From an uncultured Gammaproteobacteria bacterium (GTDB taxonomy: Bacteria > Pseudomonadota > Gammaproteobacteria > CAISUE01): a stretch of DNA of 64,000 nucleotides. Below are positions 15,001-48,000 of the stretch, piece by piece. Location of the stretch: contig CAISUE010000046.1 in NCBI GenBank assembly GCA_903888615.1, positions 1,016-65,015 of the forward strand, in the 5' to 3' direction. A program made the position numbers. Position 1 is the first letter of the stretch, and every line of letters starts with the position of its first letter.

Positions 15001-18000
15001 CCACCATGACCTTAAGTTTATTCAATGGCTTTTATGCCACCTTCATTCAATTAGTCACTTTTACGTTTGTATTGTGGCATTTATCCGGCGCTTATCAGTT
15101 GGTGGTGCATGGTTTTGCGGTAGCCATTCCAGGTTATTTAGTAGGGTGTGCACTGCTTTATGCGGGGGTGAGTACGGGGATTACCTGTTGGCTCGGTCAT
15201 CGATTAGCGCATTTGAATTATCAACAACAACATTTCAATGCCAATTTTCGTTTTGGCTTGATGCGGGTGCGTGAAAATGCTGAACAAATCGCCTTGCAAC
15301 AAGGTGCGAATTTTGAAAAACAAGCGCTGCAACAGTGCTATCAATCGGTGTTTGGTAATTTTAGACAATTGATTACTGTGAATTGCCGTTTAACCTTTTT
15401 CACCCAAAGTGCTAGTTATTTATCGATGATTATTGGTACGTTATTTGCCTTGCCGAAATTCATGATGCAAAGAATGTCAATCGGTGATTTGATGCAAATT
15501 TCCAGTGCGTTTGCGTATGTGGTCAGTGGCTTAGGATTTTTTATGACCGCTTACCGTGAAATGGCCAGTTGGCGCGCGGTAGTCGATCGTTTGAGTGAAT
15601 TTGAAGAAAAAATAGCACTCAGTGTTAAGCAACAGCAGTCTAATTTCGTGGTGAATGCCTCGCAAAGTGGGGATCTTGTGTTAAACAGCGGTATCTTTAG
15701 CACGCCCCAAGGTCGTGTCTTGGCAGTATCCGGTTCGTATACCTTTAAAGTCCAAGAACATACGTTGATTATGGGTGTTTATGGTAGTGGTAAAAGCACC
15801 TTATTGCGTAGTATGGCGGGTATTTGGCCATTTGCAAAAGGAGTTATGACAAAACCGCCAGGTTCGCGATTGTTTTTATCGCAAAAACCTTATTTTCCAA
15901 TCGGGACATTGCAAGCAGCGTTATGTTTTCCACTCAGTAGCAACGATTATGCATTGCAAACAATCATCGATGCGTTGCTTATGTTGCGCTTGGATCACTA
16001 TGTTGCTTTATTGTCACACGATCAGCATTGGATGAATGTATTATCCTTAGGTGAACAACAAAGTTTAAGTTTTGTGCGGGTGTTATTGCATAAGCCGCAG
16101 TGGTTATTTTTAGATGAAGCCACCGCATCACTCGATGAAAGCACAGAAGCTTTCCTCTATCAGTGTTTGGCGACGGCGATGCCCGACACCACCCTTATCA
16201 GTGTCGGGCATCGCCGCAGTTTAAAAGCCCAACACACTCGGGTGATTGGGTTAAGTTAACTCCACTCAAGCATGGATTGCGTTGAGTGGAGGGTATAGAA
16301 AATTTACCGGTTTAGGGTCTTTTTTAGATCATTTAGGTGGGAGCATCGTAGCCACACGTGCGACTGTTGACATGAAGGGAGTGCCTATAGCAGCATTGAC
16401 GGGCACAGTATAAACGTCGTCTTGATATATTACGGAGTATTTATCCCCGACAGTCGACACTTGAGCAGTTGCACTAGGAGGTATAGGCTTGCCACCCAGT
16501 GTCACTGATGTTTTTTCAGTCAGTGAGCCAACTACTGTTCCAGAAGGAGGTGCTGCTGTTAAAATGAGCCCGCTACTTTGAACGATAGCATAAAGATCCC
16601 GAGCGAGAGTGTTGTCGGTAGACAATGGAATCCCTACAACTGATGTACCATCTACGGTCCAACTAACGAAGGGTACAGTCATTGCTCTCCTTGACGCTGC
16701 TGCTGAACCTGTGCCACCGTTATTAAAAACAGGACTTGCAACAGGGGAGGTTTCTTTTGCTTTAGTGTCACCACCAATCGTAGCATGACTTTGTGCGAAG
16801 GCAGCGATGCTGAGGACTGCGGCTAAGCTTACAGCGATTTTTTTAATCATAATCATTCCTTGAGTTTACTAAAATAAAAACCAGTTTCTTCTTCGCGCAT
16901 CATTGCTTAAGTTCCGGTGGATTGTCAATATTTTTATGGCCCTACTTATTAGAGGCGCAGGGCCACTTCTTTAAAAAATAACTAGCCTGCCAGGAAACTT
17001 TGGCCGAAGGCCATAAAGCTATTAGCCCAGGGCGCCGCCCTGGGTTAGATTTAGATGTGTTATTAGTCTGGCTTTTTTTGATAAAAAGCACTAGAATAGT
17101 CCTATATGATCAGGCGTAAAAAACTTTATGTTAAAAATCAGTAAAATGGCCGATTATGCCACGGTGCTTATGGTGTATTGTGCTGAGCATGCGGGGCAAT
17201 CGTGGAGTGCCAGTGAAATCGCTTTAAAAACGCAATTAAAAATGCCGACAGTCAGTAAATTATTAAAAAAATTATTAAAAGTGGGTTTGTTGACTTCTAT
17301 GCGTGGTGTTCAGGGTGGTTATCAATTAGCCCGTGCACCGGAAAGGATTTCCATTGCGGCCATCATCAGCGCGATCGATGGGCCCATTGCTGTAACAGAA
17401 TGCAATCAGCGCGAAAAACACTGTGAATTGGAACGCGATTGTGGTAGCCGCAGTGGTTGGCTATTGATCAATCAAGCAGTGGAAAGTGCGCTGAATAAAG
17501 TCTATTTAATCGATATGTTAGCGGTGCCAACCTCCTCTGTCATTCATTTAAACCTTAAATCGTCGTCGTCATTATGAATACTGCTAATTCCGAATTAACC
17601 GCGTTATTGAATCAAAATTATCAACACGGCTTTGTCAGTGCCATTGAAGCAGATGCCTTGCCACCTGGCTTAAGTGAAGACACGGTGCGCGCCATTTCGT
17701 TCAAAAAAAATGAACCGGCATTTATGTTGGCGTGGCGGTTAAAAGCGTATCGTCATTGGTTGACGATGACTGAACCGGTGTGGGCGCATGTGGCTTATCC
17801 CCCCATCGATTATCAACACATCGTGTATTATTCGGCGCCTAAAGTAAAGCCCACTTTAAATAGCCTCGATGAAGTCGATCCTGAATTATTGCGGGTTTAT
17901 GAAAAATTGGGTATTTCACTAAATGAACAAAAGAAATTGTCCAATGTCGCGGTCGATGCGGTGTTTGACAGTATTTCAGTCGCTACCACCTTTAAAGATA

Positions 18001-45000: not shown

Positions 45001-48000
45001 TTCAATTTGTTTTTTTTTGTGATTTAACATCAGAATGAGTAATCAAAAATTGCAAAATATCTTTTAAAGTCAATGGCGCGTAATTGGCAATAATAATTGT
45101 CATTTAATAAAATCCTAGTAATGAGAGAGTTTTCTGCTGGGTATTGTACCAAGATAATACTTAAGGGAAGCTTAAGATGAAAAATATTGCCTTTGTTCAT
45201 TGATAGAGGATCATTTTTATAGGCCAAAGGCCTAGCGTAATTTAGCTCAGGGTTAAGGGAAAGCGCACCCTGAGTAGTAAAAAAACTTACCAAGCCCTAT
45301 CGGTGTGTTAAGAATGCTCGCTAGGGTTGTCGAAACTCGTTTCGCACTGATCGCGCGTTTTTTTACAGCCTAATTTCTTAAAGGTTGCGCTATCGCTTAG
45401 CCCCAGGCTGAGGTTTTAAATGCCTTTGGCTTTATGGGTTTTTTTTCTTCGCCTAAATCCTTTCTAGAGCTTCTAGTTCAAAATCTGCTTGGGCTTCGTT
45501 AGACTTAAATCCCTTAATAGACAGGGATAAATCTTAGGTTGTTGTTGCCAAAAAAAAGTGTTGTGTGGATTTGACATCGATCGTGTCTAGCAATATCAAT
45601 TCTTGCTCATTAATCGTCAACGCACAGTGAACCGCATCAATAGTTGATCGATTCGTGCCAGCTAAGACAGAGTGATCAAAGCCTCAGCCGCGCCAATCTA
45701 ATACCGGCACTCATTTATAAGGGTATTTTTTTCTACAAGCTCACTTGAATCCGATGCACCCTGGATGCTTAATTTATTTCAGGCGTTGTTTTGCTGCCCT
45801 TATTGCTTCAAGCGCCACGTTGGCTTTAAATTTACCCGTGAAATTCTTGCGTTTTGTTTCGCTCATAAGCCACCCCTTTTATCGTTAGGTTTATACCTTA
45901 ATTAGGCATTAAAAATGGGCTGATTTTGCGGGTCCACGAGATTTTTTTTGCGCAGCTTTTTGTGTGAAATCATGATTTGATTTAGTTCGCAATACGCAGT
46001 GGGTTGAATAAAGGTTAAGCCATAACACTATTATTGAATAATAAATTCATTGCAATTTATAAGTAAATATAATAATCTAAATAATTCTTTGTTGTTAGCG
46101 CATACGTTCATTTTCATTTGTAACAAGGATGCGCTGTATGCGTCAATAATCGCTTAAATTTTTATAAAGCTATCATAATCGAGTTAACCTCATGAAGATA
46201 CTGCCTTTTTTTTAGCCCCGCTCGGTGTCGCTGCTGCGCCCATCATAACTTTTAGACAATTAGAATGGTTGTTGGTACCCAATGGCGTCATTGGCTCTGT
46301 TAATTTTAAAGAAGTCTTAAGTTATTACCTTGCCTTGAAGTATCAAGAAACGCACTCATCGCGCGGCAATAGCAGCTATGTGTTTCTACCCCACCGTGTC
46401 AGCTTTTCAGCCTTCACCGCTAATGCGGGAGATTGTAACGTACAGCTTGGCACTTCTTATAATTGTCAGTGGCTATCTTCTTCTATCAATGGTCAATGGA
46501 CCGCGTATTCTAATGGCAGCTCGCCTTCAGGGGCATCCTCTATAGATGTCAATCTTTGGATTACGGGTGAGCGGGCTCAATACTGGCTAAATGTCAAGCT
46601 ACCCTTTAATGGTGGCAATAGGATGGCAGGAGAAATAACGATCACGCACCGCGCTACTAATTATGCTCCATTAGGGGGTACGTTGAATCCTGACGATATT
46701 TTGATATCCCCAAAGCAAATCCACGTTAAAGCCATGATTGCCAATGCTTCACCAACGGCTGCACCTAGTCCTTCTAGTGCTATGCCGACAGCGAATCCAA
46801 GCCTTAAGCCTATCTCTGCGCTATCCACTGCGCCACCGAGTGACTATTTAACGCGGTTACCCAGTGTTATGCTAACAACGCATCCAAGCCTTAAACCTAT
46901 CTCTGTGCCGTCCGCTGCGCCAAGTAAAAATCCTACCAGTACTGTTTTATACGAAAATCCTAGTGATCCCCCAGGGCACTTTTGGGCAACCAATAGCACC
47001 GAACGTACGATGGCTTTTATAGGTATTGCCTGCGGTACCATGGTAGTTGCGTATATGGCATTAAGATTGACGGGTCATACTCTTTGGAAAAAAAACACCC
47101 CAATCACGCGAAGAGAATTATTATCTGAAGATGGTGACCTTGAAAGCGCTACGCTTGACAACCTTAATGAAGCGCGAAGTGATACCTCGCTGACAGAGCT
47201 CAGTGTTGAAAATAGCCTTAGAGGTTTTAGCGAAGATGATAATAATATCCCTTTCTTTCGCGGTGAATTTCTGCAAGATTATAACCTTGGAAGCGTTGCT
47301 CTCAACAACTCTAATGAGACACGAAGTGATGCTTCGCGGACAGAGCTCAGTTCTGAAGGCAGTCTTGGCGGTGTCAGTGAAGAGAGCGATAATTCAATTT
47401 TTTCTGCAGATGAAGATTTGCGAGCTATTGTGTTATCTATACCGCTTACGGATGAAAATAGGCAGTTAACCCTTTAAAAGGGTCGATTCAAGGCGTTATA
47501 GTGGTGAAAAAGCATTTGCTAACCCCCATGGTTGTTTAGCACCTTGAATGATGGTGTCCGCAAGCGTAAATCAATAGTTGCTACGCCGTAATTCTAGGAT
47601 GGTTGCTGCTTAATAAATAGTCGTCAAAATAGGCGAGTTGTAGCTTTAACGCTAACATGTAATCGTCGTCTTGTGTCCACTTAAGTGAATGTTCTGAATG
47701 TTCTGTTGCGCTTATGCTGTTGATTTGCCTCTGGCAAGGACTGGGATCATTTTCTAAAATAGTTTCCAATGCAGCGTCAATTTTTGCAGATGCTGTGTTG
47801 TTGTTGGTTGCTGCTGATAATGCTGTTTGGAAAGCTTGTTGCAGCACTTTAATTTTTTCTTGTTCAGTGGATTTAGGGGCCACAGTAATGAGCGCCTCTT
47901 TGCCATTGTGTGCTTTTGAAGCAGTGTTGATTAAAAAATCAATGGGATTTACCGTCGGCGCTTTAACGGGCAATAAAGTAACTGCTGGTGCAGGTGATTC

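Follow-up and report, generated by a model that had tools for sequence, protein, structure and literature searches.

What are the short GC-rich palindromes that recur between genes in this stretch of an uncultured bacterial genome, and how did they come to be there? A preliminary description of the 64-kb stretch of DNA analysed here as a whole (the window) had reported them as REP/BIME or MITE-like elements with putative roles as terminators, mRNA stabilizers or recombination hotspots. With a probability of roughly 0.6, we read them as REP elements of the GTAG-tagged kind, organized as inverted dimers (REPIN/BIME-like), sharing the two-hairpin module of the Rfam motif Acido-Lenti-1 and presumably moved by a Y1/HUH transposase. 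They form an ordinary REP-type family, one more case of a familiar class of selfish or structural DNA repeat, and leave present understanding of REP biology unchanged.

Copies and anatomy of the repeat

The window contains a real family of short, two-hairpin, palindromic intergenic repeats. A covariance model (R1) was built from copies A to D and five copies from other bacteria, with copy E left out, and was run over the 64 kb. The best-preserved unit is copy A (25046-25108, minus strand; 80.3 bits, E=1e-19), followed by C (core 41661-41723, plus strand; 66.3 bits), D (45375-45437, plus strand; 65.7 bits) and B (45216-45278, minus strand; 59.7 bits). Copy E (16996-17047, minus strand), a short-loop variant outside the model, reaches 28.1 bits (E=7e-6). 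The four copies described previously, together with a relative near 17.0 kb, are thus confirmed, except that the supposed cluster at 16938-17047 shrinks to copy E; the hairpin at 16938-16990 is a different one and not a member.

Two further pieces had been missed. Copy F (~25237-25296, plus strand) is a degenerate short-loop unit that was detected by a structural scan and by a terminator scan and is ~75% identical to E by eye. It is probably, not certainly, a family member, because it scores only 5.7 bits with R1 and has no Rfam hit. A fragment directly 5' of A on the minus strand (25124-25148) matches model positions 35-59 with 13.2 bits. The rest of the 64 kb gives no score above 13 bits. 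In all, the window holds five model-supported copies, one degenerate copy and one fragment, each of them intergenic, as had been claimed. All 6-7 copies fall within 16.9-45.4 kb, and none is found in an 8-kb extension beyond the window.

Stretches of 50-64 nt are 78-88% identical between copies (for D and C, 86% over 64 nt), and their flanks are unrelated. Three copies contain the 15-mer GGTTGCGCTATCGCT without mismatch; at up to 3 mismatches it has 7 matches where 1.64 are expected, a count that 0 of 100 shuffles reach. The hairpin AGGCCAAAGGCCT has 7 matches against 1.25 expected. The copies occupy four intergenic regions with unrelated flanks rather than one duplicated segment. The window background is 43% GC, so the AT-rich surroundings reported for these GC-rich elements are only mildly so.

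Each unit consists, in order, of hairpin 1, the tetranucleotide GCTA, a linker of ~10 nt and a small GC-rich hairpin 2. Hairpin 1 is built from an outer stem, unpaired di- or trinucleotides and a GC-flanked inner stem-loop. Read on the opposite strand, [T/G]TAG precedes an imperfect palindrome, and this is how a REP element is built. The foot tetranucleotide beside hairpin 1 on that strand is TTAG in A, B, E and F, TCAG in C and D, and GTAG in homologous copies from Gemmata and Muribaculaceae. The conserved core had been described as flanked on both sides; each unit in fact has a single GGCC-AAA-GGCC hairpin, on one side of the core only.

Individual copies vary around this plan. In copy A, hairpin 1 (CCCCGGGGTTG/CAACCCCGGGG, with an inner GCG-CTAT-CGC stem-loop) is followed by GCTAAATTCTTA and then by hairpin 2, AAGGCC-TTT-GGCCTT. 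Copy B has CTCAGGGT/ACCCTGAG as hairpin 1 and AGGCC-TTT-GGCCT as hairpin 2, while hairpin 1 of D has a degenerate 5' arm (CTTAAAGG). The short-loop copy E carries CCCAGGGCG-G-CGCCCTGGG, then CTAATAGCTTTAT and the hairpin GGCC-TTCG-GGCC. Hairpin 1 of copy F, TTCAGGGC-AATC-GCTTTGGG, requires G.T pairs; it is followed by CTAATTTTAT, hairpin 2 (TGGC-TTTC-GGCCA) and GGGTTTTTTT. The fragment near A retains the linker and a stem resembling hairpin 2 (TGATTTCTAT-CGCGC-TTACA-GCGCT).

The stable hairpins attributed to the repeats are borne out for A, B and E, whose two-hairpin folds are strong (z -5.5, -3.6 and -3.1; -19.4 kcal/mol for copy A folded as DNA), but not for C, D and F, which form no stable structure when folded alone (z -1.6, -0.6 and 0.0). 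Both hairpins covary: 91% of alignment cells are paired, where shuffled data give 77%, and double-sided changes are seen at each of the 6 pairs in hairpin 2. The cells that depart from Watson-Crick pairing comprise 11 G.U and 15 A.C combinations, a symmetry that fits a DNA palindrome and not a strand-specific RNA.

Inverted dimers and insertion sites

Most copies in the window belong to head-to-head inverted dimers. B and D, the left and right arms of one dimer, are separated by a spacer (45279-45374). The two arms pair in a single 210-nt hairpin, and the whole unit spans 222 bp. A and F form a heterodimer with a 128-nt spacer and differing loop lengths. Copy C stands alone, yet its homology extends upstream (41618-41723), where ~45-50 nt align with the right part of the B-D spacer. 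Because it shares ~50 nt of D's spacer, copy C is, judging by its sequence, the singleton remnant of a dimer, and singletons in general look like such remnants. Across the window and the loci fetched from other bacteria, pairs are head-to-head in 7 cases and tail-to-tail in 2, and their spacers measure 23-128 nt. This count leaves out the arrays of the metagenome-assembled genome (MAG) W1P28.007, which alternate in orientation; by locus, alternating arrays were seen at L005 and L007. Similar BIME-like arrays are found in the Rfam seed sequences from Lentisphaera araneosa.

The B-D unit could also be seen as a miniature element of ~210 bp with terminal inverted repeats of ~55 bp, one of a set of MITEs moved by a DDE transposase such as that of a nearby IS3-family element. 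Its inverted arms do end a segment that folds as one hairpin, the 4-nt sequence TTAT occurs on both sides of it, and an IS3-family OrfA remnant (45774-45866) lies 340 bp away. However, TTAT could easily arise by chance in AT-rich flanks, and neither the A-F dimer nor a dimer from Gemmata (L010) has a direct repeat, so that the inverted repeats are not accompanied by consistent target-site duplications of fixed length. Tail-to-tail dimers, singletons and alternating arrays are not MITE organization, and every arm by itself forms a palindrome that has a conserved foot. No DDE-transposase family appears among the best 25 of 74 neighbour families at the fetched loci. Two copies had been thought to flank the insertion sequence remnant, but B and D both lie to its left, ~340 bp away. 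A MITE origin is therefore unlikely.

Comparison with related genomes suggests when the REP-type copies arrived. Copy C is located between convergent genes for an APH-family kinase and Ham1/RdgB, whose spacer is 228 bp in the window and 10 bp in the closest relative; the C-terminal residues of the kinase diverge from those of this relative from about codon 325. A and F are downstream of bamD in the bamD-thrS gap, which holds a tRNA-Val gene and measures 546 bp, compared with 173-222 bp in relatives. Copy E is flanked by iscR on one side and a divergent orphan ORF on the other. Three relatives (74 kb) have 0 copies, including at two precise syntenic sites. This absence points to a recent, lineage-specific spread. 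Contigs of the same species from other samples carry identical copies, and no insertion polymorphism was observed among them. The repeats mark recently remodelled intergenic sites of this genome, where one insertion altered the 3' end of the kinase gene and another added ~330 bp upstream of the tRNA gene. They might be useful for strain typing and might cause assembly breaks.

Relation to REP families and Acido-Lenti-1

The REP/BIME-like assignment made at the outset holds up. The repeats are short imperfect extragenic palindromes with a [G/T]TAG-type foot, whose stems are supported by folding and covariation; they occur as head-to-head or tail-to-tail dimers and as BIME-like alternating clusters, beside unrelated genes. 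They have the extragenic palindrome, foot tetranucleotide and stem layout of Escherichia coli REP/BIME sequences and of the GTAG-REP superfamily (Di Nocera 2013, PMC3733652; Nunvar 2010, PMC2817692). In particular, GTAG-3 REPs of E. coli and Coxiella burnetii have an outer stem, an unpaired di- or trinucleotide and a GC-flanked inner stem-loop, and REP dimers of both forms have been reported with comparable spacings (PMC3733652). The superfamily and the window repeats also share dimer spacings of 20-100 nt, heterodimers that differ in loop length (as in A/F), alternating clusters and unrelated neighbour genes. None of the window copies has the canonical GT[AG]G foot; some GTAG-REP families have degenerate feet, only at the second and third positions (PMC3733652). 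High copy number, with tens to hundreds of copies across a genome, is a further mark of the superfamily; the 6-7 copies counted here come from the 64-kb window and the 8-kb extension. Unlike a classic REP, the unit has a second small GC-rich hairpin fixed ~10 nt beyond its foot.

Other characterized systems resemble the family in part. REPINs of Pseudomonas fluorescens (Bertels and Rainey 2011, PMC3116915) likewise consist of two inverted units and a spacer that form one long hairpin, although their sequences are unrelated to those studied here. The long hairpin is thought to be the replicating unit and singletons are considered decayed dimers (PMC3116915), a picture matched by copy C with its retained spacer sequence. 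Vertical inheritance and restriction to particular lineages have been described for REPIN-RAYT systems; the module in the window, by contrast, recurs in several phyla. SMAG repeats of Stenotrophomonas maltophilia (GTAG families 6-9) are also GTAG-footed stem-loops found as monomers, head-to-head or tail-to-tail dimers and clusters, but their stems and loops differ in sequence and they lack a second hairpin at a fixed position.

The same module is present in Gemmata, Myxococcales, Muribaculaceae, Victivallales and one unclassified MAG, where it likewise forms inverted dimers or arrays of alternating orientation and the neighbouring housekeeping genes are unrelated. Of these, the copy at L009 matches Rfam family RF01687, Acido-Lenti-1, with 38.9 bits, above the gathering score of 37. 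At that threshold only a tRNA is found in the window; below it, E scores 20.9 bits (aligned over positions 1-46 of 46), A 16.2 bits and the fragment 15.9 bits as a partial match. E, A to D and the seed alignment all show two hairpins with a linker of ~12 nt between them that contains GCUA; in the seed alignment these parts take the form of an 8-bp hairpin, GCUA(A/C), the linker and a 5-bp GC hairpin. In the seed genomes the motif is multi-copy, clustered and present in both orientations, as in this family. The two differ in that four window copies have a loop longer by 14 nt (TTGCGCTATCGCTNNA), which the seed lacks, and in their hosts, which are Acidobacteria or Lentisphaerae for RF01687 and here look gammaproteobacterial. 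The window repeat thus resembles a motif that Rfam types as an sRNA of unknown function.

If that label were taken at face value, the copies would be paralogous genes for a trans-acting structured sRNA. The shared architecture and the score of L009, the covariation in both hairpins, the terminator-like T-run that sometimes follows hairpin 2 (in F and at L001), and the grading of Acido-Lenti-1 as 'probably RNA' by Weinberg et al. (2010, PMC2864571) all accord with this proposal. Against it, copies are found on either strand, most of them within inverted dimers or arrays of alternating orientation, and half and degenerate copies are common. No consistent promoter was found by a scan upstream of the copies, and those in the window score well under the Rfam threshold. 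The excess of G.U over A.C that would be the signature of a strand-specific RNA is missing, and close relatives are without copies at syntenic sites, unlike what is seen for a conserved regulator. An sRNA family is accordingly quite improbable.

The REP reading can be extended, more tentatively, to Acido-Lenti-1 itself. It is possible, though we hold it at less than even odds, that this motif and the window repeat are one widespread two-hairpin REP module: REPIN-like mobile DNA whose recognized unit would include the second hairpin beyond the GTAG-type foot. Such a module might have spread, presumably by means of a Y1/HUH transposase, over at least six phyla (Pseudomonadota, Planctomycetota, Myxococcota, Bacteroidota, Lentisphaerota and Acidobacteriota), with one long-loop variant nearly identical between them. 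On this evidence, a motif that Rfam lists as an 'sRNA', and whose function was still given as unknown in 2026, seems to behave as a REP/BIME-type DNA repeat. If Acido-Lenti-1 is a DNA repeat, annotation hits of the motif need another reading.

Proposed mobilization and possible roles at transcript ends

REP elements of this type could multiply as follows. As single-stranded DNA, either the unit or, with greater likelihood, the head-to-head dimer would fold into a hairpin. A tyrosine transposase of the REP-associated HUH/Y1 type, whose gene lies at another place in the genome, would recognize the stem and foot tetranucleotide and copy the element into new intergenic sites, where dimers could decay to leave singletons or degenerate units such as C, E and F. 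A tblastn search with E. coli RayT found no RAYT gene in the window, the 8-kb extension or the 22 fetched loci, and Y1_Tnp is absent from the Pfam families of flanking ORFs in the matches listed. We therefore infer, rather than observe, mobilization by a Y1 (HUH) transposase, and the same applies to the enzyme itself, to an intermediate of single-stranded DNA and to any role at the level of RNA. A REPtron, in which the repeats flank the RAYT gene, usually occurs once per genome, and one may be present outside the sequence covered here.

Copies at some sites may have acquired roles in transcription. That they are nothing but intrinsic terminators or regulatory hairpins, alike through local duplication or convergence, is suggested by A/F downstream of bamD, by C between convergent genes and by the hairpin and T8 of F, but the close sequence match among copies, with a 15-nt loop sequence identical in three of them, already goes most of the way to refuting it, and the presence of the module in other phyla makes it very improbable. 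The 3'-end position often ascribed to the repeats is not general, since E, B and D are found on the 5' side of genes. A GC-rich hairpin directly followed by a T-run downstream of a same-strand gene is not a property of the family: A, B, C and E have no T-run, D has one 8 nt further on and is only loosely terminator-like, and F alone passes the terminator scan. Once inserted, REP hairpins could nevertheless serve as transcript 3'-end structures. Hairpin 2 of F, which with its T8 after bamD resembles an intrinsic terminator, may be one example, and copy C between its convergent genes a second.

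Copies and architecture of the repeat

The repeats in this uncultured gammaproteobacterium probably constitute a REP/BIME-type family, new as a family but of a known kind (probability roughly 0.6). A covariance model of the unit (R1), built from copies A to D and five copies from other genomes, was run over the whole window with filters off. It matches copy A at 25046-25108 (minus strand, 80 bits), copy B at 45216-45278 (minus strand, 60 bits), and copies C and D at 41661-41723 and 45375-45437 (both plus strand, 66 bits each). Copy E, a relative outside the training set, is found at 16996-17047 on the minus strand (28 bits, E=7e-6), and a fragment comprising linker and second hairpin lies at 25124-25148 on the same strand (13 bits). 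Across the 64-kb window, R1 has no further match above 13 bits. A degenerate copy, F, at ~25237-25296 on the plus strand, scores poorly with both R1 and the Rfam model RF01687; it resembles E and was exposed by comparison with relatives.

The sequences of A to D and of the relative at 17.0 kb are confirmed at the positions assigned in the preliminary description, and its intergenic placement of the repeats holds for all copies. It had also counted 16938-16990 in the 17.0-kb cluster, which proves to be a separate hairpin with no R1 match. This hairpin (GGCCCT...AGGGCC, then ACTTCTTTAAAAAATAACT) resembles GGCCAAGGCCACCTCATTAAAAAAATAACT at 51011-51047 (37 nt, 73%), and the two may represent a second small repeat.

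Repeat searches of the window, whose overall GC content is 43%, pair C with D over 64 nt (86% identity), A with B over 50 nt (78%), and A in inverted orientation with C and D over 50-52 nt (83-88%). Copies A, C and D share the 15-mer GGTTGCGCTATCGCT without a mismatch. When up to 3 mismatches are allowed, the window contains 7 matches against 1.64 expected, a count reached in 0 of 100 shuffles, and the GGCC-AAA-GGCC hairpin motif is also enriched (7 matches against 1.25 expected).

On the strand that aligns to the Rfam model, the outer stem of hairpin 1 spans 8-11 bp, CC(N)GGGG.../...CCCC(N)GG. Inside it, an unpaired T faces 3 nt, and a GCG/CGC inner stem carries the CTAT loop; the loop of hairpin 1 is short in E and F. 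GCTA(A) follows on the 3' side, then a linker of ~10 nt and hairpin 2, (AA)GGCC-TTT-GGCC(TT). Strong two-hairpin folds are predicted for A (z -5.5), B (z -3.6) and E (z -3.1). Folding of C, D and F singly yields no strong two-hairpin structure, and the 5' arm is degenerate in C and D. A generic structural scan of the window recovers A, B, E and F, and C and D only as mis-registered matches; its 6 further matches outside the family, against ~3.4 per window in shuffles, include no convincing new copy. Read on the opposite strand, the order is hairpin 2, linker, (T/G)TAG and imperfect palindrome, a REP-like arrangement of a stem-loop whose foot is a tetranucleotide. This tetranucleotide reads TTAG in A, B, E and F, TCAG in C and D, and canonical GTAG in the homologous copies from Gemmata and Muribaculaceae.

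The module in other genomes and the Acido-Lenti-1 motif

Species-representative genomes and metagenomes were scanned with the pattern GGTTGCGCTATCGCTNNNCCNNNGGCT, which specifies 21 bases from hairpin 1; the window's own genome is not among the matches of either collection. Hairpin 1 with a second small hairpin occurs at four loci in Gemmata (an isolate and a MAG). The same two-hairpin module is present in a Myxococcales MAG, in Muribaculaceae MAGs, in a Victivallales MAG, and at four loci of the unclassified MAG W1P28.007. Two other loci (L004 and L014) were set aside as chance matches in coding sequence, and L006 is a partial match rather than a full copy. A related pattern has no match in viral contigs, and blastn with copy A has none in plasmids.

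Identity in hairpin 1 among the foreign copies is partly imposed, the pattern having fixed much of that hairpin. Free of the pattern are a covarying third stem position, the CTA(C/A) that follows, and the second hairpin, which differs in sequence and occupies the same position. Pairing holds in 91% of cells across 33 distinct sequences, versus 77% in shuffles, and each of the 6 pairs of hairpin 2 has changed on both sides. The genes beside the foreign copies, among the best 25 of 74 Pfam families, are mutually unrelated housekeeping genes; within that scope, 77 neighbouring ORFs contain no recurring family, transposase or integrase, and a second search, of 10 ORFs, gave the same result.

At the gathering threshold, Rfam reports only tRNA-Val in the window. 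The Myxococcales copy scores 38.9 bits against RF01687, the Acido-Lenti-1 motif (gathering score 37). Below that threshold are copy E, with 20.9 bits over the full model, and A, with 16.2 bits; sub-threshold scans of B, C, D and F give no Acido-Lenti-1 match. The authors of the motif make just two statements about it, that its hosts are Acidobacteria and Lentisphaerae and that it sometimes lies near group II introns (Weinberg 2010, PMC2864571); as late as 2026 a preprint describes it as uncharacterised. Lentisphaera araneosa contributes more than 50 copies to the motif's seed alignment, often clustered, with some clusters alternating in strand and subtype, and Koribacter contributes about a dozen. 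The seed also holds copies from Rhodopirellula baltica and Geobacter uraniireducens, two organisms for which GTAG-REP families are recorded (PMC3733652). The same paper describes a TIR family around ORF1552 of K. versatilis. GCUA(C/A) follows the first hairpin in most seed members, and GCUG does so in many Lentisphaera copies. The Acido-Lenti-1 motif, typed as 'sRNA' in Rfam, appears to be the same kind of DNA repeat as the window family, and this link is the single point of wider interest.

Inverted pairs, mobility and alternative readings

Copies B and D form a head-to-head inverted pair with 96 nt between them, and the segment that spans both (45223-45430) folds as a single long hairpin. 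A and F make a second head-to-head pair, of a long loop with a short one. Copy C is a singleton, whose homology to D extends ~50 nt upstream and matches D's dimer spacer; judged by this shared sequence, C seems to be what is left of a dimer. Applied to the foreign loci, R1 finds copies in inverted pairs there too. Head-to-head pairs number 7 and tail-to-tail pairs 2, spaced by 23-128 nt; this count takes in the window's two and leaves out the arrays of W1P28.007, which alternate in orientation with a period of ~410 bp.

One of those arrays has 3 units (L007 4063-5350), and others lie at L005 1915-2680 and at L002 670-1200 and 7340-7780. In these arrays further conserved hairpins accompany the two-hairpin module in its alternation, a BIME-like arrangement far more elaborate than the window's. 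At a Gemmata sp. IIL30 locus (L012 1910-2107), the inverted repeat reaches at least 25 nt past the second hairpin on both sides to give an almost perfect palindrome of ~200 nt; a palindromic duplication or a bigger composite element could account for it.

GTAG-tagged REPs have stems of 6-13 bp, and the loops of their GTAG-3 type, known from E. coli, Coxiella and rhizobia, carry unpaired di- or trinucleotides between the stem and a GC-flanked inner stem-loop (Di Nocera et al., PMC3733652). Their dimers are head-to-head or tail-to-tail with spacers of 20-100 nt, some of which contain small stem-loops; heterodimers of unequal loop length and clusters also occur, and some families are common to distant taxa (PMC3733652). 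Each of these features of stem, loop, dimer, heterodimer, cluster and distribution over distant taxa is also seen in the present family. The REP/BIME classification offered in the preliminary description is borne out by the stem-loop with its foot, the inverted dimers and the alternating arrays of W1P28.007.

A non-autonomous element of REP/REPIN type is the best-supported reading and a fairly probable one, for which we infer the mobilising enzyme. In this model, a REP-associated Y1 (HUH) transposase, encoded elsewhere, would copy the element in a folded single-stranded DNA form; E. coli RayT as tblastn query detects no such enzyme in the window, its 8-kb extension or any fetched locus. Some copies may later have been co-opted as transcript-end hairpins, as proposed from the second hairpin and T8 of F downstream of bamD and from the position of C between convergent genes. 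The preliminary description placed the repeats often at 3' ends of genes; three of the loci are at gene 5' sides.

The elements might instead be MITEs, and TTAT at B-D is a possible target-site duplication. However, no such duplication was found at the other sites, and tail-to-tail dimers and singletons occur, which makes this reading unlikely. Slightly less probable still is a family of sRNA genes. A strand-specific RNA tolerates G.U pairs but not A.C. The 525 pair cells comprise 468 Watson-Crick, 11 G.U and 15 A.C, and this lack of asymmetry favours a DNA-level palindrome over a strand-specific RNA. The orientation of the copies, their dimers and the existence of decayed copies likewise argue against sRNA genes, and promoter-like sites upstream of the copies show no consistent placement. 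That the copies are unrelated terminators is highly improbable, ruled out by the sequence identity between them.

Insertion history and neighbouring sequences

The best named relatives of the window's BamD are from Legionellaceae and gammaproteobacterial MAGs (~50% identity). Syntenic contigs of three related organisms were reached through homologues of BamD (73-87% identity) and of the APH-family kinase (62-74%). The 74 kb from these relatives contains no copy by R1 with filters off or by structural scan. The gap between the kinase and Ham1 genes, where C sits, is 10 bp in the closest relative and 228 bp in the window, and the window kinase diverges at its C-terminus from about codon 325. The bamD-thrS gap, with its tRNA-Val gene, measures 173-222 bp in the relatives; the window's gap is 546 bp long and additionally holds A, the fragment and F. 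Absence from the relatives, including these syntenic gaps, points to recent insertion of the copies. Identical copies of B, C and D are present in same-species contigs of three other samples, and no within-species polymorphism is seen among them.

In one relative (L025 1991-2155), the interval from the SbmA-like gene to iscR lacks the orphan ORF that adjoins E in the window (16329-16856, minus strand, 175 aa), and another (L026 10789-14220) has a 1143-aa ORF without a Pfam match between bamD and thrS. From these two differences, the repeat-bearing sites of the window are indel hot spots in the group. Several copies have a tRNA gene within ~300-350 nt. In the window this is tRNA-Val (25388-25462), with the A-F cluster on its upstream side, and Victivallales and Muribaculaceae copies are near tRNA-His or tRNA-Gln (L008 793-869, L015 890-1051, L020 3985-4146). 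No integrase was found near the tRNA-adjacent copies, and their proximity could reflect chance or a site preference.

A 30-codon ORF at 45774-45866 on the minus strand encodes the N-terminus of an IS3-family OrfA. In tblastn against plasmids, 26 aa of it align with a Methylomonas plasmid at 84.6% identity, and its other matches are annotated IS3-like transposases; Pfam has no match for the 30-aa peptide. Two repeat copies had been thought to flank this IS remnant, and B and D in fact both lie to its left. The gene-poor stretch that holds it (45440-46270) contains no other recognisable part of the IS. Pfam likewise gives no match for the flanking ORFs at 44014-45030 (minus strand), 46269-47477 (plus strand) and 47581-49053 (minus strand). 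Within the orphan ORF 46269-47477, a 60-nt repeat (46776-46835 and 46863-46922, 83% identity, 87-nt spacing) yields a repeated Ser/Pro-rich peptide segment. Elsewhere, a 280-nt direct repeat (32344-32623 and 32945-33224, 79%) overlaps a pair of ORFs on the minus strand (148 and 138 aa) that look like tandem paralogues.
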